Shown here piece by piece: positions 7,264 to 57,499 of a stretch of 64,000 nucleotides of DNA; the stretch's first letter is position 1; the number at the start of each line of letters is the position of its first letter. The position numbers and the translations under genes were made by a program. Source of the stretch: Candidatus Flexicrinis affinis (lineage in GTDB: Bacteria > Chloroflexota > Anaerolineae > Aggregatilineales > Phototrophicaceae); NCBI GenBank assembly GCA_016716525.1, contig JADJWE010000002.1:579951-643950 (forward strand), in the 5' to 3' direction. A model generated the notes under the pieces. That model worked only from the letters and a program-made list of their open reading frames with translations, did no database searches and was not told the DNA's origin.

Positions 7264-8010
<747 letters not shown>

Positions 8011-36671: not shown

Positions 36672-37940
36672 ATGCTGACCGTCGATCGGATCACGGCACG
36701 GCGGTTCATTCTCGGCAAGCAGGGCCTATGGCCCGGGCGGCGCTGGCGCGGGACTGACGGCACCGAGCAGGCCATGCGCGATATCGAATACCTTCAGCTT
36801 GACCCGCTGCAGGTCATCGCGCGCAGTCAGGACATTGCGCTGCACAGCCGCGTGTTCGATTACGCGCCGGAACAGTGGCAAGATGCGGCGTACGGCCAGC
36901 GCCAGTTCTTCGACTGGGGCGGTTGGTTGGCGACCCGGCCGATGAGCGACCTGCCGTATTGGCGGGTCGTCATGCAGCGCGAACGCGACGGCCATCCCGA
37001 CTGCGACAATCGGGTTCGCAAGATGGGCGTGGAACACGCGGAGGCCATCGCCGAAGTGCGCGAGCTGTTGCGAGAGCGCGGCACATTGACCAACCGTGAC
37101 TTCGACGCATCGGCGCGCAAGAAGACCCAGAGCTATCGCGGGCGCAAAGACAGCGCGTTGGCGTTGTATTACCTGTGGCGCGTCGGCGAAGTGATGACGC
37201 ACCACCGCGAGGGATTCGAGCGCGTATATGCGCTGGCTGAGGCGGTCGCACCGGCCCACTATCTGCACGAACGCGACCCCGCCGAAGTCGACCGCTTTCT
37301 GATCAAGAAGGACATCAGCTTCGAGGGTATCTCACGGCTGAGCCGGACGGCAGACTCGTACTTCCGCGGGGTCCCGTTCAGCCAGAAGAAGCCGATCGTC
37401 GACGACCTGCTGACCACCGGAGACATCACGGAGGTCAAGGTCGAAGGCTTGAAGCCCACGTACTACGTGCTTGCCGAAGATGTCGAACTCATCGAAGCGG
37501 TAGCGGCAGGACGCATCCCGCAGTCGTGGGAACCGATCGAGACGACCACGCAGGAGGAAGTCTCGTTTCTGGCGCCGCTCGACCCGACAATTGCGCGTGG
37601 GCGCGCCAAGGAGTTGTTCGGTTTTGACTATGTGTGGGAGGTGTACAAGCCGGCCGACAAGCGCATCTACGGCTACTACACGCTGCCGATCCTGTGGGGT
37701 GACAACCTCGTCGCGCGGTTCGACAGCAGGTTCGATCGTGCCGCTGACACGTTTACCATCCTCGGTTTCTGGTTGGAGGACGACGGTCTCGCCAGCAACG
37801 ACGCGTTCGTCGAAGCGTTAGCGCGCGGATTTTCGCGCTTTGTGGCGTTCCTCGGCGCGGCCAAGTTCGATAGCAGCGCGATTGTCGATCCGGTGCTGCG
37901 TCGCCGCCTCGGGAGTCAACGCCCACGCCAACGCTCGTAA
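36672..37940 (+). CDS. Winged-helix DNA-binding protein, YcaQ/AlkZ-like (DUF1006)
   Basis: About 420 aa. The general layout and conserved QxD/HTH-like segments fit the crosslink-glycosylase YcaQ family. This is a family-level guess only. Confidence 0.45.
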   Translation: MLTVDRITARRFILGKQGLWPGRRWRGTDGTEQAMRDIEYLQLDPLQVIARSQDIALHSRVFDYAPEQWQDAAYGQRQFFDWGGWLATRPMSDLPYWRVVMQRERDGHPDCDNRVRKMGVEHAEAIAEVRELLRERGTLTNRDFDASARKKTQSYRGRKDSALALYYLWRVGEVMTHHREGFERVYALAEAVAPAHYLHERDPAEVDRFLIKKDISFEGISRLSRTADSYFRGVPFSQKKPIVDDLLTTGDITEVKVEGLKPTYYVLAEDVELIEAVAAGRIPQSWEPIETTTQEEVSFLAPLDPTIARGRAKELFGFDYVWEVYKPADKRIYGYYTLPILWGDNLVARFDSRFDRAADTFTILGFWLEDDGLASNDAFVEALARGFSRFVAFLGAAKFDSSAIVDPVLRRRLGSQRPRQRS

Positions 37941-37950
37941 CAACACGTTA

Positions 37951-37978
37951 GTTGACAGAAAAAAAAAACGCGATATAG
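37951..37978 (+). promoter_or_regulatory. Sigma-70-type promoter candidate: consensus -35 TTGACA, a 16-nt spacer made of an A10 tract, and -10 TATAGA
   Basis: ttgaca gaaaaaaaaaacgcga tataga sits 38 nt upstream of the first gene of the low-G+C islet. Confidence 0.5.
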
Positions 37979-38015
37979 ACTGTGGTCATCAGTCCATTAG
38001 TGCTGGTGGTGGATC

Positions 38016-38864
38016 ATGACCCTACGCGTCCGGATCGCGGTTCTGTGCGTGCTGATCTGTGCCATCGCCTTACCGGCAGTAGCGCAAGACCCGCCCATAC
38101 TGTCTCCCCAGTCTAAACTGACCCGCGAGCAGCGGGAACGAAAGCTAGAAATCATTCGAGAGGTCCGTCAGGCCTATTTCGCGCAGTTTCGGACCCGAAC
38201 CGCAGCGGACTACAACCTCGTTTATATCGTTGGCCCGGCCCTGCTTGAGGACACAGCCTCATACGTTGCGGTCAACATACTGCAGGACAATATCCCCAAT
38301 CTCGTCGTCGTAGCGTCAGGGAGCGACTTCGAGAGGTTGGCGGAGAACGATTGGACACGCTTCGACTCGATTGTCATACACCGCTCGGCGTTGGAGTGGC
38401 TGGACGCCGAATCTATTCAACGCGCCTACGCGCGGGGTATCGCTGTAACGACGTTGGGAATGCGTTTCGAGGAGCACGCTGCGCTGACTGGCGATCGGTG
38501 TTCGCTGCCTGCGACGCGAGGAGACCCGCTGCTTAACGATCCCCGAAATCCTCCCAAGCCGGGGGATCTCGGTGTCATTGTTTCGTGGCACAGACTTCGG
38601 GCCAATTCCTTATTGGCTGCACAACTCGCGTCACTGAATCGTGATGTTCTCTCGTCCTGCAAAGACGAACAGATAGAACTCGACGGCGTGCGTGTAGGCG
38701 TTTCATCAGCGTCTTGGCTGCACGAAGTGCGTTCTGCCGGCGATCTGGAAGCACTAGTTGTATTGGTGACAAACGGCGCGGTTACTCTCGAGGCATTTCA
38801 GGGCCGAGCTGAACTTGAAAGCGAGATCAACCTTCGACTGGCTCAAGAGGGATTACTCGAATGA
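38016..38864 (+). CDS. Hypothetical secreted protein in a low-G+C islet
   Basis: Signal peptide MTLRVRIAVLCVLICAIALPAVAQ. I recognise no family. Codon usage is visibly less GC3-rich than in neighbouring genes. Confidence 0.5.
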   Translation: MTLRVRIAVLCVLICAIALPAVAQDPPILSPQSKLTREQRERKLEIIREVRQAYFAQFRTRTAADYNLVYIVGPALLEDTASYVAVNILQDNIPNLVVVASGSDFERLAENDWTRFDSIVIHRSALEWLDAESIQRAYARGIAVTTLGMRFEEHAALTGDRCSLPATRGDPLLNDPRNPPKPGDLGVIVSWHRLRANSLLAAQLASLNRDVLSSCKDEQIELDGVRVGVSSASWLHEVRSAGDLEALVVLVTNGAVTLEAFQGRAELESEINLRLAQEGLLE

Positions 38865-39421
38865 CAAACTGGATCTGGGCTCTCCGCTCTCTAGTGCGAC
38901 TTGCTGTTCTGATTTGCCTAGCCGGGAGTGTATTCGCAGGAAGCTGGTTCACCGATCTCGACTTCTGTTTTGGGCCAAACAATTCTACGGTACTGTGCGT
39001 ACCCAATGCAGGGTTTGTACCAATGCACACTCGAGCGGGCTACTATGCGCCGCCCATTGATTACGTTCCGATTTCCTCAACTTGGACTGATTATCTCAGC
39101 GTGCCTGAGATCAGGGCAAGAGCACGGACATGGGACCTGTATCACTGTCTTCCGGACTTCACGTTGAAAGGCGACGACGTGGATACGAGCTATGTTGACG
39201 TAGAAGAGGCCACATTGCTTCCGGGCGTTGACTTGATTCTGCAAGACCATGATTACTTCACTTCGAAGCACAGAATCGTGTTTAATCCGACGATCTACAA
39301 ACTGAAGGCCTATAGTAGCGCGAACGGCATATATAGCTCCAAAGCGTGGTGGGATGGTTCCGCGCACAAGCCTGAGCCAACATGCTCCCTGACGTTTCCA
39401 CCACCACCTGACGACGATTGA
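38861..39421 (+). CDS. Hypothetical secreted protein in a low-G+C islet, Cys-containing with a Pro/Asp tail
   Basis: ATGA-coupled to the previous gene. The N-terminus has signal-peptide character, and the protein ends with PPPPDDD. Confidence 0.5.
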   Translation: MTNWIWALRSLVRLAVLICLAGSVFAGSWFTDLDFCFGPNNSTVLCVPNAGFVPMHTRAGYYAPPIDYVPISSTWTDYLSVPEIRARARTWDLYHCLPDFTLKGDDVDTSYVDVEEATLLPGVDLILQDHDYFTSKHRIVFNPTIYKLKAYSSANGIYSSKAWWDGSAHKPEPTCSLTFPPPPDDD

Positions 39422-39436
39422 GAACTGGCCGATACG

Positions 39437-40696
39437 TCACTCAACTTCCGCGATCCGGCGTAGGAGGAACGCGCGTTCGGCGGCGTTGGTGCACAGGTCG
39501 AGCGCGCGCAGGTAGGCGGCGCGGGCTTCCGGCATCCACCCCAACCGGCGCAGCAGGTCGGCGCGGGCGGCGTGGAACAGGTGATAGCCGTCGAGCGCCC
39601 CGTCGTTTCCCAACGCGTCGATCCGGTCGAGACCGGCCTCCAACCCGTCGCTCATGGCGACGGCAACGGCGTGATTTAGCGCGACCACTGGCGTCGGGGC
39701 CAAGCGGTGGAGCGCGCCGTACAGCAGTGCGATCTGCGCCCAGTCCGTGCTGGCCGAGTCCGGCGACTGTGCGTGCAGCGCCGCGATGGCGGCCTGAATC
39801 TGGTACGGGCCGGCACGCTTGAGCGTAATCGCGTGGTCGAGGATGGCGACGCCGCGGCCGATCTGCGCGTGATCCCACTGCGACCGGTTCTGATCCTCGA
39901 GCAGCACGAGCTGTCCGTCGACCGATTGGCGCGCCCCGCGCCGCGCGTCGTGCAGCAGCATCAACGCCCATAGGCCGAGCGCCTCGGGGTCTTCGCGCAG
40001 GCCGCGCTCGTGCGCCAGCAGGTCGTTGAGTACGGCGGCCAGGCGGATCGCCTCGGTCGTCAGGTCGGGCCGCACGATCGACTCGCCCTCAGGCGCGCTG
40101 TACCCCGCGTTGAAGATCAGGTACAGCACCGACAGCACCGCATCGAGGCGGTCGGGGATGTCGGACGGCGACGGTACAGCGTATGGGATGCCCTCGTCCT
40201 TGATGCGCCGCTTGGCGCGCACCAATCGCTGCTGCAGAGTCGTCACCGGCACGAGGAACGCGGCGGCGATCTCCGACGCGCTCAAACCGCCGAGCGTGTG
40301 CAGCGTCAGCGCGACCTGCGCCTCTTTGCTCAACGCCGGGTGACAGCATGTGAACATCAGCTTGAGCCGCTCGTCCGGGATGTCCTCGGTGAGCATGTCC
40401 GGGTCCTCCGATGCGCCGCGCATCGCCTCCAGCGCGTGCAGGGTCGCCTTCTTGCGCTCGAAGTTCTGCTCGCGGCGTACGCGGTCGATGGCGCGATTGC
40501 GTGCCGTCGCCGTGATCCACGCGGCCGGATTGCGCGGAATGCCGCCCTCCGGCCAGTGTTCGAGCGCCGAGACGACCGCGTCCTGCAACACATCTTCAGC
40601 CAGCGCAAAGTCCCCTAGCGCGGCGATCAAGGCGGCGAGGACGCGCCCGTGCTCGTCGTGCAGCACCTTACGAATGGTGTCGTGAGTCGTCCGCAT
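39437..40696 (-). CDS. ECF-type sigma-70 family RNA polymerase sigma factor with a long C-terminal extension
   Basis: Region 2 ('AAWITATARNRAIDRVRRE') and region 4 ('GLSASEIAAAFLVPVTTLQQRLVRAKRRI'), followed by a ~200-aa extension. It lies downstream of a YciI gene, a common pairing. Confidence 0.75.
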   Translation of the reverse strand: MRTTHDTIRKVLHDEHGRVLAALIAALGDFALAEDVLQDAVVSALEHWPEGGIPRNPAAWITATARNRAIDRVRREQNFERKKATLHALEAMRGASEDPDMLTEDIPDERLKLMFTCCHPALSKEAQVALTLHTLGGLSASEIAAAFLVPVTTLQQRLVRAKRRIKDEGIPYAVPSPSDIPDRLDAVLSVLYLIFNAGYSAPEGESIVRPDLTTEAIRLAAVLNDLLAHERGLREDPEALGLWALMLLHDARRGARQSVDGQLVLLEDQNRSQWDHAQIGRGVAILDHAITLKRAGPYQIQAAIAALHAQSPDSASTDWAQIALLYGALHRLAPTPVVALNHAVAVAMSDGLEAGLDRIDALGNDGALDGYHLFHAARADLLRRLGWMPEARAAYLRALDLCTNAAERAFLLRRIAEVE

Positions 40697-40711
40697 CGGA
40701 ACCGGGTACGC

Positions 40712-41053
40712 CTAGAACTCGACGATCGGGCGAACCTCGACGCTGCCGTGTTTCGCACCGGGGATCATCGCCGCGACCTCGCACGCCTCTTCGATCGTGT
40801 TCGCCTCGATGACATAGTACCCGCCCAGCGCCTCCTTCGTCTCGGCGAACGGGCCGTCGGTGGTCAGCACCTTGCCGTCGCGGACACGCACGGTCTTGGC
40901 GGTCGCCACCGGGTACAGCGCCTCGCCGGTCATATTGACCCCGCGTGCGCGGGCTTTGGCGTTGAACGCATAGTACTCCTGCATCTCCGCTTGCTGCTCC
41001 GCCTCGGTCATGTTGGGCCGGTCTTCGCCGTAGATCAGCGCGATGTACTTCAT
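40712..41053 (-). CDS. YciI-family (DGPF domain) protein
   Basis: 'MKYIALIYGED...GPFAETKEALGGYYVIEANTIEEA'. Start is at the internal Met (41053) with a GGGAGA RBS. It is 16 nt upstream of the sigma-factor gene. Confidence 0.75.
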   Translation of the reverse strand: MKYIALIYGEDRPNMTEAEQQAEMQEYYAFNAKARARGVNMTGEALYPVATAKTVRVRDGKVLTTDGPFAETKEALGGYYVIEANTIEEACEVAAMIPGAKHGSVEVRPIVEF

Positions 41054-41191
41054 GCCTATCTCCCTCGAGTCGCTAGTCGTACGTGCGCGCCTACTATAAC
41101 GACGATCAGCGTATCGGAAAATCGACACTCATCATCTGTGCGGCTATGCAAGCAGACGTGTTGAGTTCCGGTTGGGTCAAACGCCTCAGCT

Positions 41192-41210
41192 ATTGGATAT
41201 CCAATTGGAT
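41192..41210. promoter_or_regulatory. AT-rich 14-nt perfect palindrome plus a third half-site in a divergent promoter region
   Basis: ATTGGATATCCAAT is followed by TGGATT (ATTGGAT x3). It lies between the yciI-sigma operon start (41053) and the hypothetical gene start (41290). Confidence 0.4.
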
Positions 41211-41289
41211 TGAACCACCGCCGCCCGGATCGCGTATTCTTTGTGTAGCACACAGACGCGGCAGGCGAAACGGGGGGTACCGTCAAGCC

Positions 41290-41967
41290 ATGGATGTCCA
41301 GACCCTCATCGAACGGCACGTCAATGCGCTCGGGGGAATACGCGCGGTACTCGATGTGCGCGCGCTGTCCATGCGCGGGCTCGTCACGGATGGACGACAC
41401 CGGACACGCGCCGTGCGCAGTTGGCGCCTGCGGCCCAATTACCTGCGGATCGACGTCGAAGAGGCGTCGGGCATTGCCGTCGAGGCGTGGGACGGATCGC
41501 ACGGGTGGGTCGTCCAACCCGAAGAGTCGCCCTATCCGGCGATCGTGTGGGGCCACACCGCGGAGGCCCTGAGGCGCGACAGCACGTTCGACAGCCCGCT
41601 CATCCTGCCCGAGCAGCACGGCGCGCGCGTCACCGGCTTGGGCGAGCGAGTCGTCAGCGGCCTGCCCGTTTACGGCGTGCGCGTCGTTGCACAGGACCAG
41701 TCTCAAACCGACTTTTACCTGCACCGCCAGTCGTACATGATCGCCATGACCGAGTCCCGCCCGCCGCTGACCGACGTGAACGCGTCACCATGCAAGTGCC
41801 TGTACACCGACTATCGCGTTGTCAGCGGAATGTTGATCCCGCATTACGTGGTGACCCTATGCACGGGAAACGGGCGTCATGAGACGTTCAGTTGGGAGGA
41901 GATCACGGCCAACCCGCCGCTTGATCCCGACTTTTTTCAGATGTCCGCCGCAGTAGCGGGCCGGTAG
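41290..41967 (+). CDS. Hypothetical protein (LolA-fold-like by composition only)
   Basis: Coding-like frame from the Met at 41290. The upstream part of the track ORF has a low coding-like character. I recognise no motif. Confidence 0.4.
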   Translation: MDVQTLIERHVNALGGIRAVLDVRALSMRGLVTDGRHRTRAVRSWRLRPNYLRIDVEEASGIAVEAWDGSHGWVVQPEESPYPAIVWGHTAEALRRDSTFDSPLILPEQHGARVTGLGERVVSGLPVYGVRVVAQDQSQTDFYLHRQSYMIAMTESRPPLTDVNASPCKCLYTDYRVVSGMLIPHYVVTLCTGNGRHETFSWEEITANPPLDPDFFQMSAAVAGR

Positions 41968-42357: not shown

Positions 42358-44534
42358 TCGGAATTTCCCTCCTCTACGGCCTTAAGCCGCAGCACTCGGC
42401 TGTCGAAGTTGCCGAGCAGCAGCGGAATGCCGCCGTACATCCAGCCCGCGCCGGTGCGCACGCCTTCTCGCAGGTCGAGTGCAGCGCGCAGGTCGGAATC
42501 GAATCCATGGCCGCCGGTGTCCGCATGCGGCAGCTCGAGCGTCTCCAGCGTGTACAGCCGATCGGGTTCCAGCCCGCGCGGATACACCGTCAGCGGTACC
42601 GCCGGATCGGGGATATGCGTGCGGAAGGCGAAGATCACGGCTTCCGAAGGGAGATGCTGCGTGTCGTAATCTACGAAGTTCAGTGCCGTATAGCCCTCGG
42701 GCGTTTGGAGCCTATAGACCCTGCCGTTGTGCACGATGTGTCTGATCTGCTTGTACTGCGCGATGGCCGTGCGCGCCATGTCCTTCTCGGCATCGCCCCA
42801 CTTTGTGATGTCCGCGCCGATGCCGAAGACCCCGAACATGCTGACGTGCAGCCGGAAGCTCAGCGGCACGATCGGATCGCCCATGTCGGTCACCCACGCT
42901 TCCATGGTCGAGGCCGGGAACGCGTGCAGGTAATTGACCTGCATGGGCAGGCGGCGGGTCGGCATGGTGTTGTCGCTGATCCAGATCTGTTCGGCGTACT
43001 TGAGGATGCCGTAATCGGCGCGCCCGCCGCCTCCGGAGCACGACTGCCACACGATGTTCGGGTGGCGCCACCCCAACTGCTCCAACACGCGGTACAGCCC
43101 CTTGACATACTCGACCCAAATCTCGCGCGGATCGCCCGGGGCATCCGGCCAGCCCGGTTCGCTGACGTTGCGGTTCATGTCCCACTTGATAAACCGGATG
43201 TCCGCGCTCTTCAGCAGCGTGTCGAGTTCGGCAATCAGATAATCCTGCACGTCCAGACGCGCGAGGTTGAGGATGTACTGGTCGCGCATTTCGCTCGGTG
43301 TACGCGTCGGAAAATGGATGATCCAATCCGGGTGATTGCGATACAGGTCGCTGTCCGGGTTGACCATCTCCGGCTCGATCCACAGGCCGAACGTCATGCC
43401 CAGCGCCTTGACGCGCTCGGCCAGTGGCGACAAACCGTCGGGGAACTTGACCGGGTCGGGCGTCCAGTCGCCGAGGCCGGCCTTATCGATCGTCCGCCCC
43501 TTGAACCACCCATCGTCCATCACGAACAGCTCGACACCGAGGTCGGCGGCAATCTCGGCATAACGCGTCTGCGACTCAGTGTCGACGTCGAACGTCGAGA
43601 CCTCCCAACTGTTGAACAACACGGGTTTGGGGTGATCCCAACGCCGATCGCGATCTGGCATGAGGTATTCGCCCGCATGATCATGCAGGCAGTGGCTAGC
43701 ACCCGTATAGCCCTTGGACGTGTACCCGCCCCACGCGTGCGCCGTTTCAAACGAACGGCCCGAATCAAGCCGATACGCGAAGTCCCAGTCGTTGATTCCG
43801 GTCGCGACGCGCGTCGCGTAGAATCCGGTCACCTCGGCGCGGGTGGCCCAGTTGCCAGACCACAAGAGCGTGCCAAACCACACGTCGCCGTGCTCCTCGT
43901 CAGCGTCGACATCGAGCGACCACCACGGGTTGTGATGATGGCTGGTGGTGAGCCGGCGGCTTTCCAGCAGCTTGACACCTGGCGTGAGGCGTTCGGACTG
44001 CATCTGCCACTCGTCAAGCCACTTGCCGGTCAAGTGGCGCAGACGGTACTGCGGCCCGCGCGGGACGTTCCAGACCGCCGAATACGCCCGTTCGATCACC
44101 ATCGGCTCGTCGCCCTCGTTGCGAACCTCGACCCATCGTTCGATCAGATCGAAGCCGAAATGTGCCCAGTAATTGATGCTCACCTTTAGCGGGTAGTGGA
44201 CGTCCCTAAATACGACTTCAAGTAGGCCTTCCTCGCAGTCTGCTGACTCGAACTTCAGCACGGTATCGCGCACGCCATCCGGCTGGGTGATCTTGAGCGC
44301 AGGCTCGACGTAATTCGGGCCGGCGTAGGCCGGGTATTCGAGCTGATTCAGCGTACCGCGGTCGCTGAAGCTCGCCCACCGGCCGAGGTCTTGCGCAGGC
44401 GGGATGTCCTCGACCCGGTCGAGTCGGCGGCCCCAATAGCGCGTCACGAGCTGGCCGGCGGCGTTCAGGCCGACCGCGTAGGTTGTATTTTCCGTGTGCA
44501 GCACCCACGAGTCGGGCTGTTGATCGGTCGGCAT
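42354..44534 (-). CDS. Alpha-galactosidase, glycoside hydrolase family 36
   Basis: 726 aa with the GH36 hallmarks 'FVMDDGWF' and 'KWDMNRN', and a (beta/alpha)8 core flanked by N- and C-terminal beta domains. Confidence 0.85.
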   Translation of the reverse strand: MPTDQQPDSWVLHTENTTYAVGLNAAGQLVTRYWGRRLDRVEDIPPAQDLGRWASFSDRGTLNQLEYPAYAGPNYVEPALKITQPDGVRDTVLKFESADCEEGLLEVVFRDVHYPLKVSINYWAHFGFDLIERWVEVRNEGDEPMVIERAYSAVWNVPRGPQYRLRHLTGKWLDEWQMQSERLTPGVKLLESRRLTTSHHHNPWWSLDVDADEEHGDVWFGTLLWSGNWATRAEVTGFYATRVATGINDWDFAYRLDSGRSFETAHAWGGYTSKGYTGASHCLHDHAGEYLMPDRDRRWDHPKPVLFNSWEVSTFDVDTESQTRYAEIAADLGVELFVMDDGWFKGRTIDKAGLGDWTPDPVKFPDGLSPLAERVKALGMTFGLWIEPEMVNPDSDLYRNHPDWIIHFPTRTPSEMRDQYILNLARLDVQDYLIAELDTLLKSADIRFIKWDMNRNVSEPGWPDAPGDPREIWVEYVKGLYRVLEQLGWRHPNIVWQSCSGGGGRADYGILKYAEQIWISDNTMPTRRLPMQVNYLHAFPASTMEAWVTDMGDPIVPLSFRLHVSMFGVFGIGADITKWGDAEKDMARTAIAQYKQIRHIVHNGRVYRLQTPEGYTALNFVDYDTQHLPSEAVIFAFRTHIPDPAVPLTVYPRGLEPDRLYTLETLELPHADTGGHGFDSDLRAALDLREGVRTGAGWMYGGIPLLLGNFDSRVLRLKAVEEGNSE

Positions 44535-44676
44535 CGCGCTATCCTTTACGGTCGTTCTCGCCGGCCGGATTCTAGCAACGGTGGCGATTGAGAGCTATTG
44601 CACAAATCAGCACACAACGGCCAGTTCTGAATTACAATCTGCATTACGTCTACTTGCGCAGTTCGAACGGGCAACC

Positions 44677-46449
44677 ATGACCGATTTGTACGGCATCGTC
44701 TACATATTCACCCTTGCCGGGGCGATCTTCTCTGCTTTGGTCGCGTGGTTCGCGTGGCCCTATCGCCGGGACCTGACGACGATTCGCACCTATTCAGTTC
44801 TCATGGCGCTTGTGAGCGCCACTTGTATCCTGTATTGCATCCTGTGGACGACGCCTTCCGACGGCGTGGCATGGGCTGCAGCGCACCTGCGCTTTACCAC
44901 CCAAGCCATAATGCCGGTCGTCTTCCTCATCTCGGTCATGCAATTCGACCGCGGAAAATGGATGCTCAGCCCGTGGCATGCTGCCGGAATCTTTGCGGTA
45001 CCCCTGATTGTTATTGCATCGGTATGGAGCAACGAATATCACCAGTTGTTCGCTCAATCGTGGCGATTGCTCGGCATCGGAATGCTGCGCTACGATCAGG
45101 TCGTGCACGGCCCGGGCTGGCACCTTCACACGTTGTACAGCTATACAATGATCGGTGCTGCACTGCTGATCGGCCTGCGCGGCTCGCTTCGCCAAAATGA
45201 ACCGCACGCCGTCGAATACCTCTTGATTGTCCTGACGGTTCTGACCATCGTGATCGTCAACCTGCCGGTGGGCATATTGCTCCTCAACACGTGGACCACC
45301 AACCTGCTGGCGATCAGTCTCGTGGCGGCAGGCACAGTCTACGGATATGCCCTGCACCGCTATCGCCGATCCGGTTTCGTGCCGATCGCGCTTGAATACG
45401 TGTATAACACCATGCGCGATCCGGTTCTCGTGCTCAATGCCGACCGGCGGGTCGTTTCGGCCAATCCGGCGGCTTTGCATTTGTTTGGCCCGGCGACGAG
45501 TGCGGTCAAGGGCTATCAGCTCGAAGCCGCGTGCGCTAGACTTGTCGAAAGTGCCGAGGCCGTACCGGGTCGCGATGTCGAAGTGACCTTCCAGATCAAT
45601 GGTCAGCCGATGACCTTCGACATTCAGGTTCAGCCCATCACCGACGCCGGATCGCGACCCGCGGTGCTGGTGGTCATGCGTGACATCACCCAACGCATCG
45701 TCGCCGTGCGCCAATCGTTCGAGCTGAGCTTGGAAACCGAGAAGGTGCGGTTGTTGGAGCGTTTCATCTCCGACACCAGTCACGACCTGCGCACGCCCCT
45801 CACCATCATGCAGACTGCCGCCTACCTCGCGCAGCGGGCCGATGACCCTGCCAAGCGTGCCGCAAGGCTTGAGGAGATCGTGTCGCAGATCGGCCGCATT
45901 ACCCGCATTATCGACACGCTGCATCTGATGACCCGCCTCGACACGCTTGGAGCCGCGGCTGTCTCCGCCGTTCCGCTGAAGCAAACCGTCGTTCCGCTGA
46001 CGAGCGAACTAGAAGACCTGATACGTGCGCGCGGTCATACGCTCGTAACTGAATGTTCGGATGCCACCGTCCGCGGCGATCCCGAGCTGCTACGAATCGC
46101 TCTGCACCACCTGATCGGAAACGCGGCGCTGTATACACCGCCGGGCGGACGTATTGAGATTCGATGTCTGCCAACCGACGATCATGCCGTCATCACCGTG
46201 ACCGACAACGGCGTCGGAATCGCTGCGGACAACCTGCGCCTCGTCTTCGAACGGCTCGCCAAGGGTGATGCCGCGCGATCATCTCTTGGCGCTGGCCTCG
46301 GTCTCAGTATCGTACGCAAGGTCGCCGAGCTGCACGGAGGTACGATCGACGTCTTCAGTACGCCGGGGGCAGGCAGCACGTTCACCCTTAAGCTGCCGTT
46401 GTACCACTCACCTGCCGGCGCCGTGTCAAGCGGGTCGAGACTCATGTAG
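44677..46449 (+). CDS. Membrane sensor histidine kinase with an N-terminal 7TM sensor domain, PAS, HisKA and HATPase_c (paralogue 1)
   Basis: Seven N-terminal TM helices ('MTDLYGIVYIFTLAG...'), then PAS, then the H-box 'SHDLRTPLT' and 'GLGLSIVRKVAELHGG'. Start is at the Met at 44677 within the track ORF. Confidence 0.8.
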   Translation: MTDLYGIVYIFTLAGAIFSALVAWFAWPYRRDLTTIRTYSVLMALVSATCILYCILWTTPSDGVAWAAAHLRFTTQAIMPVVFLISVMQFDRGKWMLSPWHAAGIFAVPLIVIASVWSNEYHQLFAQSWRLLGIGMLRYDQVVHGPGWHLHTLYSYTMIGAALLIGLRGSLRQNEPHAVEYLLIVLTVLTIVIVNLPVGILLLNTWTTNLLAISLVAAGTVYGYALHRYRRSGFVPIALEYVYNTMRDPVLVLNADRRVVSANPAALHLFGPATSAVKGYQLEAACARLVESAEAVPGRDVEVTFQINGQPMTFDIQVQPITDAGSRPAVLVVMRDITQRIVAVRQSFELSLETEKVRLLERFISDTSHDLRTPLTIMQTAAYLAQRADDPAKRAARLEEIVSQIGRITRIIDTLHLMTRLDTLGAAAVSAVPLKQTVVPLTSELEDLIRARGHTLVTECSDATVRGDPELLRIALHHLIGNAALYTPPGGRIEIRCLPTDDHAVITVTDNGVGIAADNLRLVFERLAKGDAARSSLGAGLGLSIVRKVAELHGGTIDVFSTPGAGSTFTLKLPLYHSPAGAVSSGSRLM

Positions 46450-46560
46450 AGCGCCATACCGCTGTAACCGGATACGCGACGCCGCGCAAACCTACACACA
46501 CCATAGGTCAGCAGCGGCTTACAATACCGGTAACGAATTGTGCGCAGCCCGCAGCGGCTC

Positions 46561-48333
46561 ATGACTGACCTGTACGGTATCGTTTACATCTTCACCCTTG
46601 CCGGGGTGCTCTTCAGCGCCGGGCTGGCGTATTTTGGTTGGCGCCAACGCCACGACGCGCCGGTGATGTACACCTATGCCGTGCTGTCGGCGGGTGCCGC
46701 GCTGGCCAGCCTGATGTACTGCATCGTCTGGACGACGCCATCGCCCGAGCTCGCATATATCGCCGCGCGGATCCGCTTCACGAGCCACGCGTTCATCGCC
46801 GTGCTGTTCCTCATGATCGTGCTGCAGATCGAGGGCGTGTCGGTCAGCAAACACCGCTGGTGGTTTGGCGTGCTTGTGGTCGTGCCGATCATCGCAATGA
46901 CCGCCTTGTGGACGAACGACAGCCACCTTTTGTTTTTCCGGTCGTGGGAACGACTGCCGGTCGGCTCATTGATGATCGAAATCATTGAGCATGGCCCGGC
47001 TTGGCACCTGCACACCGGCTACAGCTACCTGATGATCCTGTTGGTGCTCATCCTCTGCGTACGCGGGCTGCTGCGCAAGGGTCAAACGCGTACCACCGAA
47101 TACATGCTGATGCTGGTCACGATGCTGACTCTAGTCGTGTTCAACATCCCCGGCGGCGTGCTGCAGGGCGATCAGCGCGTCCCGATTCTGGTGCCGGTCA
47201 GCTTCGTCGTCGCCGATGGGATCGTCGGCTATGCGCTCTATCGGCACATTGTGTCCAGCCTCGTGCCGATGGCGCTGGACGCGGCGTTCAACAGCATGGA
47301 AGACCCGATGCTGGTGATCAACCAGGACGAACGGGTTACCGCCGCCAATCCGGCGGCACATCGCCTCGCGGGCGTGGAGCGCGGCAAGCTGATTGGCGCC
47401 AAGCTGTGCGAAGTCCCGGGTAATGTGTTCGCTCAACTTGTGCAGCGCAGCGAATCGACGTTCGAAGTCGAAATCCCACGGGCCGGGCATCCCGCGACCT
47501 ATGACGTGCGCATCTCGCCCATCGAGGTTTCCGGCAGGCCACGCGGTACGCTGATGGTCCTACGCGATATCACCCAGCGCGCGGTCGCCAACAAGCGCAG
47601 CATGGAACTGCGACTGGAGCAGGAAAAGGTCCGAATGCTGGAGCGCTTCATCGGCGACACCAGCCACGATCTGCGCACGCCGCTAACGATCATGGACACC
47701 GCGCTCTATATCGCAGAACGTACCAGCGACCCGGTCAAGCGCAGCCAGAAGCTCGCCGAGGTCAGCGTGCAAATCCACCGCGTCAGCCGAATCATCGAGT
47801 CGCTGCAGTTCATGACGCGACTCGACTCGCTGCAGACGATGCGCATATCCAGCATCTCGCTGCAGAGCGCAGTCCAACCGCTCCCTGACGAGCTTGACGA
47901 ATTGATTCAGGTGCGCGGACACACACTGATCGTGGACTGTGATGACGCGTACATCAAAGCCGATCTCGAGCTGCTGCGCAGCGCGGTCCACCGGCTGATC
48001 GAGAACGCCGCGCAGTACACGCCCAACGGCGGGACGATTCGGGTAGAAGCGGGAGTCGTCGGCGAATCGGCCGTCATTGCCGTATCCGACAATGGGACCG
48101 GCATCTCCGCAGACAAAATGCCGCACATCTTCGACCGGTTCACAAAGGCGTCGCCGGCACGTACGTCGACGGGCGCTGGTCTCGGCCTCGCCATCGTCCG
48201 TAAGATCGCCGAACTGCACTGCGGATTGGTCGACGTGTCGAGCGAAATTGGCAAAGGCAGCACGTTCCTGCTGTTGCTGCCTGCACGGCTGTCAACGACA
48301 ACCTTGACCGGTAGCGCACTGCTCAATGCCTGA
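46561..48333 (+). CDS. Membrane sensor histidine kinase with an N-terminal 7TM sensor domain (paralogue 2, tandem duplicate)
   Basis: Same architecture and start ('MTDLYGIVYIFTLAG...') as the preceding gene. The 5' leader is also partly conserved. Confidence 0.8.
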   Translation: MTDLYGIVYIFTLAGVLFSAGLAYFGWRQRHDAPVMYTYAVLSAGAALASLMYCIVWTTPSPELAYIAARIRFTSHAFIAVLFLMIVLQIEGVSVSKHRWWFGVLVVVPIIAMTALWTNDSHLLFFRSWERLPVGSLMIEIIEHGPAWHLHTGYSYLMILLVLILCVRGLLRKGQTRTTEYMLMLVTMLTLVVFNIPGGVLQGDQRVPILVPVSFVVADGIVGYALYRHIVSSLVPMALDAAFNSMEDPMLVINQDERVTAANPAAHRLAGVERGKLIGAKLCEVPGNVFAQLVQRSESTFEVEIPRAGHPATYDVRISPIEVSGRPRGTLMVLRDITQRAVANKRSMELRLEQEKVRMLERFIGDTSHDLRTPLTIMDTALYIAERTSDPVKRSQKLAEVSVQIHRVSRIIESLQFMTRLDSLQTMRISSISLQSAVQPLPDELDELIQVRGHTLIVDCDDAYIKADLELLRSAVHRLIENAAQYTPNGGTIRVEAGVVGESAVIAVSDNGTGISADKMPHIFDRFTKASPARTSTGAGLGLAIVRKIAELHCGLVDVSSEIGKGSTFLLLLPARLSTTTLTGSALLNA

Positions 48334-49985
48334 GAGTTCGCCCGCTCTACTCGCTCGACTGTGGCCAGCTCGCACGTCCCTGCGGTCGCGTTTGGCGGCG
48401 CTCGCCGGCATCGGCACCGTGCTTGTCGGCGCGCTAGTGGCCGTGATCACCGGGCAGGTCGCCCGTGCGCAGCTGACCGCCACCGTTGGCACCGCGCTGG
48501 TCTCGACCGCGCAGCAAATCGCCGACCTGCTCGACCGTGAAATGTACGAGCGCTGGCGCGATGTCGAATTCACGGCGGGGCTTCGGCGTATGAACGATCC
48601 GAAGTCGTCAGTAGAGGATCGTCGGGATCTGCTAAACGAGCTCAAGGGTACGTATCGCTACTACTCGTGGATCGGGTTCACAGACACGACTGGGACGATC
48701 ATCGCCGGCTCGGATGGACTTCTGGAGGGCGAGTCGGTCGCGGCGCGTCCGTGGTTCATCGGCGGTCTGACAGGTATGTTCGTGGGCGACGTACGCGATG
48801 CAGTCCTGTTGGCGCGCGTTCTCGAAGTCGATCCGAACACGCCACTGCGGTTTGTCGACTTCGCCGTGCCGGTCAAAGCGCCGGATGGCACGCTGTTGGG
48901 CGTACTGGGCGCGCACTTGAGCTGGGAATGGGCGCGTGACCTGACGTCGTCGTTCCGGGTAGACAACGGCAGTGACAGCGTGCTGCGCGATCTCGATGTG
49001 ATGATCGTCAATCGGGACGGCCGCTTGCTGATGAGTTTGGATGACGTGGGCGCGGGTGCCGTAGAGACCCTGCCGGTCGTGGATCCCGAACTATATGCGC
49101 CGCGACTCGCCAACGACAATCCGACCTATTGGCTGTCTGAGTGGCCGGATGGAGTCCGCTATGCGGTCGCCGCGGTCAGCGACACCGGATATGAGGCGTA
49201 TCCTGGGCTTGGCTGGACGGTCGTAGTGCGACAGACCGAATCGATTGCGCTGGCGCCAGCCTCGCTCATTCAGGCGCCCATTTTGCTTGTCGGGCTCGCC
49301 GCGGGCGTCGTCGTCGCAGCGCTGGTGTGGGTCGCGACAGGCCGACTAATGCGGTCGCTCTTACAAGTCGTACAGGCTGCGGAGCTCGCCGCTTCCGGCG
49401 TAAACCTGACCGATCTGCCGGTACACTCGCGGCTCGCTGAAGTGAGCCAGCTCAGCAGCGCCCTGACGCACATGATGCATGAGCTTGAGGGTCGCAAGCA
49501 TGCAAGCAGCCACGACTTCCTGACCGGTCTCGCCAATCGTGCCGCGTTCGAAAGTGCGCTTCAGGAAACGCTCACCCGCGGCGTTCAGGTACAGATCGCC
49601 GTGGCAATCGTTGACCTAGACTCCTTCAAACCTGTCAACGACAAGTTCGGCCATGCGGCCGGCGACGCCGTGCTGCGTGTCCTCGCGCGCCGCTTTGCCG
49701 ACGCCGTCCGCGGGCACGGCCTGCTCGCCCGGCTAGGGTGGCGACGAGTTCGCCGTGATGCTCGCGCCAATCGAGTCACAAGAGGCTGCTCTCGGCACGA
49801 TTCAAACCCTGATTGACGCCGCGGGCGACGAGATCGAGGAGCTTTCGGTCGTCGTAGGGGCAAGCGCTGGAGTGAGCTACAGCCCCGACCACGGAATCAC
49901 TGTGGCAGAGCTGCTGGCAGCAGCGGATCGCGCGTTGTATGCCGCCAAACGTGCGGGGCGCGGGCGCGCGCGCGTGGCCGATTAA
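48326..49985 (+). pseudogene. Membrane diguanylate cyclase: periplasmic Cache-like sensor, HAMP and GGDEF; frame broken inside the GGDEF motif (as sequenced)
   Basis: 'ARPWF' Cache signature and a HAMP segment. The GGDEF motif reads 'LLARLG' then switches frame ('GDEFAVMLAPIE' lies in the 49755..49985 frame). The cause is one extra g in 'ctaGGGtggcg'. Its ATG overlaps the stop of the second kinase gene. Confidence 0.7.
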
Positions 49986-56221: not shown

Positions 56222-57499
56222 CTACGGCGTCGACGTCGCTGTAGCCACCATGCACGGCCAGGTCCCATACGTCGGACAGTCCTGAACGAGTGGCTCGCCC
56301 GGGGGATCCTCGGCCCAACTGTACCCATGTCCCGGGTACGCAAGGTTGAAAAACGAAATGGCGTCATTGCTACCGGCCAGCCGATCCACATAGAACGCAA
56401 GACCCAATTCCGGGTACGCGATCACGATAAGATCTGGAGTCGCCGCTTTCGCGGTGTCATGTATCGTTGCGACTGGCGGTGAACCGAATACTTCAACGAC
56501 GACGTCTACGGTTGTATCGAGGCGGCCATTCAATTGGTCGACCATGCCTGACACGATGTGTACGTCGATCGCTGAATCTGAGAATAGGAGTGGCAAGTCA
56601 GGGGCGTACCACTGAATCTGACCAGGCAGAACATAGTACTGGATACTCGCGCTTACGAGAGAATCGACTAACTCCTGCTCGGTCGTGACATTCGGCTGGA
56701 TGCCGAGAAAACAGTTTCGCTGACAGTCCGGCCCGCTGAACAGGTTCAGCAGCGCCTGCCCTTCGGTTGAGAGCGACTGTTCGTCCATGTCGGCAGATGT
56801 AGAAACGGCGGTCGGCGTCGCCGTCGGCGCGATACATGGGGCCACATCGTATGTTGCGCACTCTTGGGTCACTGGTGTGCCGGGGGGATGACTTGGCATA
56901 CCGACTCGGTTCTCAGGCTCAGTCAGAAACAAATAACTAGCTCTTTGGGTGTTCTGTGTTGCGTCTACAAAAAACAGTAGGCCCAAGTCTGGATACCCAA
57001 CTAAGTACATGGGGAATTGATACGTTACGACCTCTGGCGCACCGAAAACCTGCAGGATTGCGCTCACGCGGACACCTATCGGAGCGGCAACTTGAATCAC
57101 GGTGCGTTGATCATCTTCTCCGACGGTAATAGTAAATCCGAATGGATCGACTCCATCGTTGACCCCCGCGATCAGCTCAGGTTCCCAGTAAATCACGCCA
57201 TACTCAAAGTGGTATGCTGTGTTGCTCTGTTCGAGGGATGACACAATCTCCGTCGCGGTAGTAACCCCGGGCTCGAGTCCCATATAGCACAGTGGCGAAC
57301 ATTCGCCTGCGAATAGACTGTTGAGGATTTTCACTTCAGATTGCGAATCGAAAGCCGATTGCCCGCCGCCGCCAGTGGGTGTTGGCGTCGTCACGGGCGT
57401 GGATGGCACGGTCGGCTGGGCTTTTGACAGGCCGAGCAGCACAATGCCGAACAAGGTAACTAACAGGCATCTAGACAAGAGGTTCATTGAACATGTCAC
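56222..57499 (-). CDS. Hypothetical secreted protein with an internal tandem duplication, in a low-G+C islet
   Basis: Signal peptide and a Thr/Pro linker. Two ~170-aa repeats ('LNSLFAGECSPLCYMGLEPGVTTATEIVSSLEQ...' and 'LLNLFSGPDCQRNCFLGIQPNVTTEQELVDSLVSAS...'), each with conserved Cys pairs. I recognise no family. Confidence 0.5.
   Translation of the reverse strand: MTCSMNLLSRCLLVTLFGIVLLGLSKAQPTVPSTPVTTPTPTGGGGQSAFDSQSEVKILNSLFAGECSPLCYMGLEPGVTTATEIVSSLEQSNTAYHFEYGVIYWEPELIAGVNDGVDPFGFTITVGEDDQRTVIQVAAPIGVRVSAILQVFGAPEVVTYQFPMYLVGYPDLGLLFFVDATQNTQRASYLFLTEPENRVGMPSHPPGTPVTQECATYDVAPCIAPTATPTAVSTSADMDEQSLSTEGQALLNLFSGPDCQRNCFLGIQPNVTTEQELVDSLVSASIQYYVLPGQIQWYAPDLPLLFSDSAIDVHIVSGMVDQLNGRLDTTVDVVVEVFGSPPVATIHDTAKAATPDLIVIAYPELGLAFYVDRLAGSNDAISFFNLAYPGHGYSWAEDPPGEPLVQDCPTYGTWPCMVATATSTP

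Follow-up and report, generated by a model that had tools for sequence, protein, structure and literature searches.

What might a run of ten adenines do between the putative promoter hexamers of two small genes for predicted secreted proteins, and is the AT-rich unit that carries it a recent arrival in its genome? The locus, here called A-B, occupies positions 37941-39436 of the window, by which we mean the whole 64-kb stretch of DNA that was analysed, and its host is a wastewater-type Chloroflexi genome. The unit has its own predicted promoter and lies between two convergent genes, one encoding an AlkZ-like protein and the other an ECF sigma factor. Its features are the following.

37952..37957, plus strand: -35 hexamer TTGACA, matching 6/6 consensus positions (direct reading and promoter scan)
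37959..37968, plus strand: poly-A tract A10, length-polymorphic, within the predicted promoter spacer
37974..37981, plus strand: two overlapping -10 candidates, TATAGA (37974-37979) and TAGACT (37976-37981), from reading and scan
38005..38013, plus strand: purine-rich GGTGGTGGA, possible ribosome-binding site before ORF A, suggested by its letters
38016..38864, plus strand: ORF A, 282 aa, predicted Sec-secreted protein (ORF translation, family alignment)
38861..39421, plus strand: ORF B, 186 aa, predicted secreted, four Cys, acidic C-terminal tail (ORF translation, homologues)
39422..39436, no strand: 15 nt left between ORF B and the stop codon of the ECF sigma gene, which runs convergently

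Long homopolymers are rare in this DNA. The A10 run is the sole homopolymer of at least 7 bases in the 64-kb window, in line with the first-pass annotation, which had called it atypical for the genome. Other Chloroflexota DNA, 1.05 Mb in total, has three runs of at least 9 bases, and runs of at least 10 bases were not found in it. The -35 hexamer is followed by a G (37958), the ten adenines, CGCGA (37969-37973) and then TATAGA. The promoter had been described as TTGACA-16-TATAGA, and both the sequence and the 16-nt spacing are correct, but TAGACT is more likely to be the -10 element. The consensus scanner selected TTGACA-18-TAGACT (37952-37981, 10/12 matches) because TATAGA has no T at position 6, and TAGACT conforms to the TAnnnT pattern common to the promoters of related loci. 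With TAGACT the spacer measures 18, 17 or 16 nt for A10, A9 or A8, and with TATAGA it measures 16, 15 or 14 nt. A repeat between the -35 and -10 elements, the defining trait of promoters controlled by spacer length, is therefore present in the window, in a predicted promoter. The hexamers probably act as a real promoter if E. coli-type rules hold in a Chloroflexi organism, and TTGACA-like hexamers of putative promoter function stand at the equivalent position before eight other family members. An ECF-type promoter used by the neighboring sigma factor is unlikely, since relatives without that gene keep the TTGACA...TAnnnT layout. A role of the A10 run as the terminator tail of the AlkZ-like gene was ruled out, as that strand carries A's rather than T's.

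The two genes overlap in an ATGA (38861-38864) that joins the stop of ORF A to the start of ORF B. Both translations begin with a hydrophobic signal-like segment, ending ...ALPAVA|QD in ORF A and ...AGSVFA|GSW in ORF B, and ORF B carries four Cys past this segment and terminates in PPPPDDD. The translations uphold the earlier description of an ATGA-coupled pair with signal peptides and a Cys-containing second protein ending in PPPPDDD, the signal segments being predictions. No match to ORF A or ORF B was found in Pfam, NCBIfam, PADLOC, PHROGs or PDB-sequence libraries. The earlier statement that the proteins have no recognisable domains stands as far as these curated libraries go, but about 30 clusters are homologous to ORF A, and next to them lie homologues of ORF B. 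Both had first appeared as orphans, as a word-indexed search returned self-matches only and the ORF A profile run through the word index recovered just three members; exhaustive HMMER revealed the family of ORF A, with 32 representatives at E below 1e-3. These representatives share 24-42% identity and span 243-348 aa, with one exception of 207 aa. Alignment A1 of the family conserves the signal segment ending A-Q, Y70, S124, Y138, G159-D160-x-C162 and C215. A Ser-His-Asp triad was considered and rejected: S124 and D160 are conserved among 31 members, H122 and H154 are not. All homologues with a named source come from Chloroflexota/Anaerolineae metagenome-assembled genomes (MAGs), and most homologues carry no taxonomic name. 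By these profile matches the ORF A family is an undescribed one, so far restricted to Chloroflexota among named sources.

ORF B follows its partner closely. Its homologues lie immediately 3' of ORF A homologues in L012, L095, L099, L011 and L097, although two of these five are disrupted, and its HMM matches solely adjacent to A. Alignment A5 conserves C46, R89-x-W91, C96, T134, H137, C175 and P180, together with the near-invariant motifs Y-x-TSKH and WWDG. Judged by such alignments ORF B is a real gene, and the A-B pair is conserved. Its family, like that of ORF A, is undescribed and has so far come up in Chloroflexota only. Both families retain N-terminal hydrophobic segments, A-x-A-type ends and conserved Cys pairs, features consistent with secretion of A and B. 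A metagenome scan recovered one locus with the A profile and no match with the B profile. Single-sequence AlphaFold models were unusable (mean pLDDT 45 for A and 39 for B), and Foldseek with the A model returned noise, the best hit having E 0.06, TM about 0.19 and pointing to generic Rossmann-like methyltransferases. The family evolves fast. Between L007 and L009, which are syntenic here, identity is 46% for the A orthologues and 77-92% for their neighbors, so the divergence of A is accelerated relative to its neighbors.

The base composition of the unit raises the possibility that promoter and A-B cassette were newly imported from a donor of lower G+C and set between the convergent genes, with the A-tract as incidental baggage. 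The suspected drop in G+C is real and amounts to 0.544 for 37941-39436 against a window mean of 0.629 (SD 0.0225 over 1.5-kb segments), making the locus the minimum of the entire window and placing it within the lowest 0.05% of 1.5-kb segments. Codon usage deviates from the host as well: GC3 is 0.604 in ORF A (z = -2.5) and 0.561 in ORF B (z = -3.1), while 41 other ORFs average 0.79 (SD 0.07), and with a CAI-like index the two lie at z = -2.7 and z = -3.2, respectively. The composition changes abruptly at both edges, with 11 nt from the AlkZ-like stop to the -35 hexamer and 15 nt from the ORF B stop to the sigma stop. Neighborhoods of family members also differ from genome to genome. Neither A nor B was nearby in any of 80 Chloroflexota loci with an AlkZ-like gene, but these loci are not syntenic with the window and have no other neighbor in common with it, so the scan could not reveal an empty site and the missing genes are uninformative. 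The nearest other genomes retrieved, with AlkZ-like proteins 64-71% identical, equally share no synteny with the window.

Several observations speak against a recent import. No signature of mobility was seen: integrase or transposase domains were not found among the scanned neighbors, tRNA genes as potential targets are absent from the 64-kb window, and no meaningful flanking or direct repeats surround the locus, as the first-pass annotation had partly noted for integrase and tRNA. Scans of viral contigs gave no match. Homologues with a named source all fall within Chloroflexota rather than in distant taxa, and the cassette is present in all five assemblies of the organism. Nine of 11 family loci are AT-richer than their flanks, with a G+C that follows that of the host, and these nine include L007/L009 at a shared syntenic position in related genomes; low G+C thus looks like a trait of a fast-evolving family rather than a mark of recent import. 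An import would further leave unexplained why tracts of differing base recur in homologous promoters. The proposal of an acquired cassette is consequently not established, and we regard it as unlikely. We take the low G+C for a property of a rapidly diverging family, as far as composition can tell, and not for proof of recent transfer. An integron cassette is likewise unlikely because just 15 nt follow ORF B and the boundary has no inverted repeat. Region 37941-39436 matched no Rfam family, and no terminator-like site was predicted after ORF B.

The length of the tract differs between samples. We compared five independent assemblies from different sequencing runs, all carrying the exact ORF A protein; besides the MAG's own long and short reads, the runs involved are DRR784963, SRR11674018, ERR15459717 and SRR31864891. 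The window and L002 have A10, L001/L005 and L003 have A9 and L004 has A8, and the tract is the single indel in alignments spanning 1.6 to 11.8 kb among the five assemblies. A substitution at 39281 (T to C in L003 and L004) is nonsynonymous and changes F141L in ORF B. Combined with tract length it defines the haplotypes T/A10, T/A9, C/A9 and C/A8, and to account for these the tract must have changed twice or more, compared with a single substitution in 1.5 kb. A9 occurs on both backgrounds, which would fit reversible switching. At the level of assemblies, repeat length hence varies far more than other sites among close relatives. A second lineage behaves likewise. L007 and L008, whose protein P0029 is 25% identical to ORF A, have A9 and A10 upstream of the gene, and this difference is the sole indel in 4.76 kb.

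Variation of this kind could arise from slippage without consequence or from sequencing or assembly errors, with the promoter equally active at all lengths. Homopolymers of 8-10 bases are hot spots of biological slippage and sequencing error alike. The lengths were taken from assemblies, in which homopolymer miscalls are possible, and the family contig L100 ends within a G-run. Runs of A10 are intrinsically unstable, so polymorphism by itself is no proof of a regulatory role. Every observed allele would give a spacer of 16-18 nt under TAGACT. The internal control is weak, as the compared 11.8 kb contain seven other runs of at least 5 bases, none of which varies. Against an artefact, the long-read MAG and the independent assembly L002, which is 100% identical to the window across 5143 nt, concur on exactly A10. 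Three lengths within otherwise near-identical DNA and the parallel in L007/L008 are also difficult to reconcile with error or neutral drift of a run. Inconsequential slippage is challenged further by where such runs are found across the family.

Homologous promoters repeatedly carry a homopolymer in the same place. The window reads TTGACA-G A10 CGCGATA-TAGACT, L095 reads TTGACA-AACGC A9 GGA-TACTCT, and L098/L099 reads TTGACA-AAC G12 AAGTG-TACTCT. L012 has TTGACA-G7 TGGAAAGTGAGG-TAATAT, L097 has TTTACA-A7 TATCTAGTGA-TATGCT, making an A8 run, and L013 has TTGGCA-A5...-TAATAT. The layout with a repeat in the spacer is hence shared with L095, L097, L098, L012 and L013, and the tract stays right after the -35 element though its base changes between A and G among members. 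Of 11 independent family loci, 6 carry an A-run or G-run, 7-12 bases long, within 150 nt upstream, mostly in a near-consensus spacer; runs of at least 8 bases are found in five of the 11 and runs of at least 9 in four. Among 572 control regions upstream of other genes in the 80 Chloroflexota loci, runs of at least 7, 8 and 9 bases occur in 2.6%, 0.7% and 0%, respectively (binomial P for the enrichment 1e-7 to 3e-9). The recurrence has exceptions in three or four members: the tract is absent in L011, L096 and L009, and L006 has only A5 (TTGACC-GAATCACAAAAACACGAT-TATCAT). Slippage without consequence does not explain why rare runs cluster in the promoter spacers of one family, nor why they are maintained as A-runs in some members and G-runs in others. 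Together with the artefact, we judge it to be quite improbable.

Action of the tract by means other than spacing, such as promoter geometry set by a stiff or curved A-tract or by a G-run structure, a regulator site or, in some members, reiterative transcription near the start site, is very improbable: L007/L008 have their A9/A10 run outside the spacer of the top-scoring hexamer pair and 3 nt downstream of the second-ranked TTGTCT-17-TAATGT, near a possible start site, and spacers are unusually long for simple sigma-70 promoters in L012 (19 nt) and L098 (20 nt), but A-runs and G-runs of very different structure share the same place (L095 versus L098), favoring length or mutability over structure or a protein site, and neither a conserved flanking operator in the window nor an Rfam match in the region was seen.

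We thus lean towards reading A-B as a two-gene operon for a secreted, disulfide-containing pair under a near-consensus sigma-70-type promoter with a hypermutable poly-A spacer. The tract lies between the predicted hexamers, is polymorphic in length and recurs in homologous promoters. Slipped-strand mispairing at replication would add or remove A's and so alter the spacing of the -35 and -10 elements to 16, 17 or 18 nt (TAGACT) or to 14, 15 or 16 nt (TATAGA) for A8, A9 or A10. Such shifts might turn the transcription of both genes up or down in a heritable and reversible manner, as in a contingency locus of the phase- or "volume"-variable type, and the tract might switch at a high rate within lineages. 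Since all alleles give possibly active spacers of 16-18 nt with TAGACT, the effect may be graded or small rather than on/off. Most likely the pair consists of fast-evolving cell-envelope or extracellular proteins that are sometimes costly and sometimes beneficial to express, for instance under exposure to phage or grazers, or in adhesion. The suspicion that a tract in the promoter spacer could mark a contingency locus has become the best-supported part of the first-pass annotation, given the A8, A9 and A10 alleles and the recurrence in the family.

Repeat-driven promoter switching is textbook knowledge for Neisseria, Haemophilus, Bordetella and mycoplasmas, and is known mainly from pathogens. 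In opc of Neisseria meningitidis, a poly-C between the hexamers controls the surface-protein transcript through spacing. The porA gene of the same species has a poly-G in the spacer, where a one-base change shifts the spacing and the surface-protein transcript (PMC3899988). A repeat in the -35/-10 spacer similarly sets promoter strength in hifA/hifB, in genes for Bordetella pertussis outer-membrane proteins and in Mycoplasma hyorhinis (PMC3899988). The predicted A-B promoter resembles porA and opc in having a homopolymer between the -35 and -10 hexamers. It differs in its environmental Chloroflexi host, in the use of poly-A (poly-G in relatives) and in its two unrelated, predicted secreted proteins. 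In Haemophilus influenzae hifA/hifB, the number of spacer repeats yields graded strength over several spacings (PMC3899988), analogous to the 16/17/18-nt series of the A-B promoter, but the repeat there is a TA dinucleotide and the promoter is bidirectional and drives fimbrial genes. [quoted passage not shown] Its Vlp proteins are lipoproteins, repetitive at the C-terminus and encoded in a multigene array. A poly-A in the promoter region governs on/off switching of these variable surface proteins, according to work cited in PMC3899988. A and B, in contrast, are single copy in the window, and neither a lipobox Cys closing the signal segment (alignments A1 and A5) nor internal repeats were seen. 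A-B is also reminiscent of genomic islets or "morons", being compact, low in G+C, equipped with its own promoter and placed between unrelated genes. Unlike morons, it stands outside a prophage, has no mobility signature and gave no viral relatives in our scans.

Full-text literature searches returned no report of repeat-driven promoter switching in Chloroflexi. The architecture described here extends across about ten divergent uncultured Chloroflexota relatives and is length-variable between samples in two lineages. We tentatively propose that free-living filamentous-type Chloroflexota of engineered and natural waters keep A-B as a contingency locus, in which the spacer homopolymer might have been selected for switchability across deep divergence, including the change from A to G. 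As a practical matter, low G+C combined with an own promoter should not automatically be equated with recent horizontal transfer. The tract would offer a testable marker, readable from sequence, of heterogeneity within populations of bacteria abundant in wastewater and sediment, and it points to the A and B families as likely objects of fluctuating selection, for instance as phage receptors or in adhesion or kin interaction. If the proposal is true, repeat-based bet-hedging, deemed mainly a trait of host-adapted pathogens, would also operate in environmental monoderm bacteria, and what is switched would probably be a factor in interactions with phage, predators or other cells.

The two-gene region at 37941-39436 differs from its surroundings in base composition. 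It has 54.4% G+C against 62.8% in the window and the lowest G+C of all 1.5-kb windows in the 64 kb, 3.8 SD under their mean of 0.629. The drop that the first-pass annotation had noted by eye is thus a computed minimum. GC3 is 0.60 in ORF A and 0.56 in ORF B, compared with ~0.79 in 41 other ORFs, and a CAI-like index deviates in the same two genes (z = -2.7 and z = -3.2, respectively). Both encode predicted secreted proteins and overlap in an ATGA, so the coupling proposed earlier holds in their coordinates.

Features of the two-gene region and its neighbours
36672-37940, AlkZ-like (YcaQ-type) DNA glycosylase gene (Pfam PF06224), upstream neighbour whose stop borders the region
37952-37957, TTGACA (-35), 11 bases past the AlkZ-like stop
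37959-37968, A10 tract, preceded by a single G
38016-38864, ORF A, 282 aa
38861-39421, ORF B, 186 aa
39437-40696, minus strand, convergent ECF sigma gene (Sigma70_r2/r4 and DUF6596)

Only 15 nt (39422-39436) separate the stops of ORF B and the sigma gene, and no terminator-like site is predicted in this gap. Antisense transcription from the variable promoter might therefore run into the sigma/YCII operon and could, speculatively, tie its expression to tract length. No tRNA gene occurs anywhere in the 64-kb window, in line with the earlier statement that none flanks the region. Nothing meaningful was found among flanking repeats around 37941-39436, and an Rfam search of the interval gave no match. 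Further downstream (44581-49816), two 7TM-PAS histidine kinase genes stand in tandem ahead of a dCache-HAMP-GGDEF gene; this signalling cluster is of an ordinary type and has no connection with the ORF A/ORF B locus.

The promoter region reads, in order, TTGACA, G, A10, CGCGA and TATAGACT. The TTGACA-16-TATAGA promoter described at first pass is literally present. A consensus scanner instead chose TTGACA-18-TAGACT (10/12 matches), because TATAGA lacks a T at the sixth position. The A10 had also been called highly atypical, and it is the sole homopolymer of at least 7 bases in the window.

The tract differs in length between assemblies. Four more contigs, from assemblies of different public runs, encode the exact ORF A protein, and tract lengths were taken from the assembled contigs with the window as reference. 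One contig (L002) is 100% identical to the window over 5143 nt, A10 included. The deposited MAG and this independent assembly agree, which argues against a simple error in tract length. The tract is A9 in L001/L005, A9 in L003 and A8 in L004. It is the sole indel in gapped alignments to L005 (11.8 kb, with patches of dense substitutions elsewhere), L003 (1.6 kb) and L004 (1.6 kb). A T to C substitution at 39281 (F141L in ORF B) divides the set into the haplotypes T/A10, T/A9, C/A9 and C/A8, which implies at least two changes of tract length in the time of a single substitution across 1.5 kb. A distant homologue repeats the pattern: in L007/L008 (protein cluster P0029), TTGCA is followed by A9 or A10, the sole indel between two samples over 4.76 kb, and the run lies outside the spacer of the best-scoring hexamer pair. 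As a separate observation, the cassette of L005 (DRR784963), another strain, is identical to that of the window, and L005 carries 15-56 substitutions per 500 nt at window 40124-41623 and 42624-44123 (sigma/YCII region and GH36 gene). These patches alternate with stretches of zero substitutions, a pattern that looks like a recombination mosaic.

Homopolymer runs recur in the promoters of relatives. For every independent family member, 150-200 nt of upstream sequence were read and one uniform hexamer rule was applied.

Promoters of ORF A family members (-35; spacer sequence; -10; spacer length)
Window (P0001): TTGACA; G A10 CGCGATA; TAGACT; 18 nt (17 and 16 in the A9 and A8 alleles)
L006 (P0003, 42% identical): TTGACC; GAATCACAAAAACACGAT; TATCAT; 18 nt
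L095 (P0008): TTGACA; AACGC A9 GGA; TACTCT; 17 nt
L098/L099 (P0012): TTGACA; AAC G12 AAGTG; TACTCT; 20 nt
L012 (P0005): TTGACA; G7 TGGAAAGTGAGG; TAATAT; 19 nt
L097 (P0010): TTTACA; A7 TATCTAGTGA; TATGCT; 17 nt
L013 (P0007): TTGGCA; A5 TCCAATTGTCAT; TAATAT; 17 nt
L011 (P0004): TTGACA; no tract; TAGCTT; 17 nt
L096 (P0009): TTGACT; no tract; TATCCT; 16 nt

The L006 promoter is visibly homologous to that of the window, with an interrupted A-run. L009 and L094, the latter cut by a contig end, gave no promoter call under the hexamer rule. In L095 and L098 the flanks are the same (TTGACAAAC...TACTCT) but enclose an A-run in one and a G-run in the other; what is kept is the run and not a particular sequence. 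Two contigs begin just 5' of an ORF A homologue: L100, the third contig of the P0012 set, has position 1 inside a G-run (G9), and L094 starts in or at a G-run (positions 1-10, GGGGGAGGGG). Breaks in assembly seem to occur at these tracts.

Such runs are rare in the background, a set of 80 other Chloroflexota loci totalling 1.05 Mb at 57% G+C. There, runs of at least 7, 8, 9 and 10 bases occur 99, 17, 3 and 0 times. Among 572 control upstream regions, each with its own intergenic gap, runs of at least 7, 8 and 9 bases are found in 2.6%, 0.7% and 0%, against 6, 5 and 4 of the 11 independent family loci (binomial P ~1e-7 to 3e-9). Beyond the 150-nt upstream stretch, run density at the family loci is not above background. 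The recurrence of runs in family promoters is far above chance, and replicated comparative evidence supports the contingency locus that the first-pass annotation had offered as an alternative. One of only 4 control runs of at least 8 bases is a T8/A8 run 5' of an AlkZ-like gene in a Caldilineaceae MAG (L027, ~7883-8000), near TTGACA and TATAGA-like hexamers.

Word-indexed searches with ORF A and ORF B returned self-hits only (source Chloroflexi MAG, locus tag IPM16_11840). An exhaustive HMMER search of 1.84 billion representatives (E below 1e-3) matched 32 proteins to ORF A at 24-42% identity, with lengths of 243-348 aa except P0025 (207 aa). All source-named members come from Chloroflexota or Anaerolineae MAGs. 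One Anaerolineae MAG carries two members, P0011 and P0041 (MUF87_17420, MUF87_09540); paralogues therefore exist in some genomes. The aligned family shares a hydrophobic N-terminus ending in A-Q-(D/E), the motifs H-x-S-A-L, A-Y-R-x-G and T-G-D-x-C, and a second conserved Cys (C215), consistent with a predicted Sec-exported, disulfide-bonded protein. Single-sequence structure models of both proteins were too poor for use; at low confidence, strands and helices alternate at ORF A residues ~60-160. A classical hydrolase triad is unsupported because S124 and D160 have no conserved His to go with them.

ORF B homologues lie directly 3' of ORF A homologues at five other loci. Searches of all the DNA covered by the analysis with both HMMs found B solely beside A, at 6 of 11 independent A loci. 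The homologues in L012 (169 aa), L095 (180 aa) and L098/L099 (175 aa) are intact. Those in L011 (1157-1669, one in-frame TAA) and L097 (1053-1562, one frameshift and one TGA) are disrupted downstream of intact ORF A homologues; decay, sequencing error or a further layer of on/off control could explain this. The ORF B alignment shows a signal segment, conserved Cys residues, an acidic tail and the motifs R-x-W...C, Y-x-TSKH and WWDG..H..P.C. Neither family matched Pfam, NCBIfam, PADLOC, PHROGs or PDB sequences. The proteins thus lack recognisable domains in these libraries, as first described, yet both have homologues and are real genes.

The first-pass annotation also proposed a small horizontally acquired cassette. 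Recent acquisition is possible, and composition is the one observation that points to it; the mobility features of genomic islands were not found in the ORF A-ORF B region, and the proposal is not established. Among genome hits to the AlkZ-like neighbour, the best 80 (64-71% identical) have no other neighbour in common with the window. The ORF A homologue is AT-richer than its remaining contig in 9 of 11 loci (G+C 0.41 vs 0.53 in L007, 0.51 vs 0.59 in L095, 0.47 vs 0.52 in L012), and its G+C roughly follows that of the host. L007 and L009, from two related organisms, are syntenic (SDR, A, SDR, ThrRS). Their A orthologues (L007 2673-3488, L009 6001-6819) are 46% identical; the proteins encoded around them, SDR and ThrRS among others, reach 77-92%. 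In both stretches no gene is richer in A+T than A, and the tract is present in L007/L008 and absent in L009. Low G+C therefore accompanies the family even where it was clearly kept in place, and goes together either with much faster divergence of A compared with its flanks or with replacement in situ by a divergent allele. A second low-GC3 gene in the window (56222-57499, minus strand; GC3 0.61, codon index among the lowest) matches nothing in Pfam and lacks an upstream homopolymer. Its 425-aa product has a signal-like N-terminus, Thr/Pro-rich linkers, paired Cys residues and, by eye in translation, two similar halves of ~200 aa each.

Slippage in the run would alter the spacing between the -35 and -10 hexamers. 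With TAGACT, the A10, A9 and A8 alleles would give 18, 17 and 16 nt, straddling the usual optimum; with TATAGA they would give 16, 15 and 14 nt. From the established behaviour of sigma-70 promoters, stepwise changes in promoter strength would be expected under either reading, and translational coupling would make both genes respond. Spacer-repeat control has analogues in the porA, hifA/hifB, Bordetella pertussis and Mycoplasma hyorhinis promoters (reviewed in PMC3899988; general review, PMC11868660). The window locus resembles these in the position and length polymorphism of its repeat within a predicted promoter, and by analogy the most likely mechanism is a spacer-repeat promoter of an already known kind. 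A Vlp-type lipoprotein system was ruled out because ORF A and ORF B have neither lipobox nor repeats. Full-text literature searches turned up no account of phase variation in Chloroflexi. The cargo consists of two undescribed protein families.

Predicted export signals and conserved Cys pairs in both proteins, the rapid divergence of ORF A and the loss or disruption of ORF B in several loci together suggest an envelope or extracellular pair that may be under fluctuating or diversifying selection. The design is familiar; what is noteworthy is the Chloroflexota host, a run conserved across a divergent family, in which A and G are interchangeable, and the fact that the idea can be tested directly from public reads.
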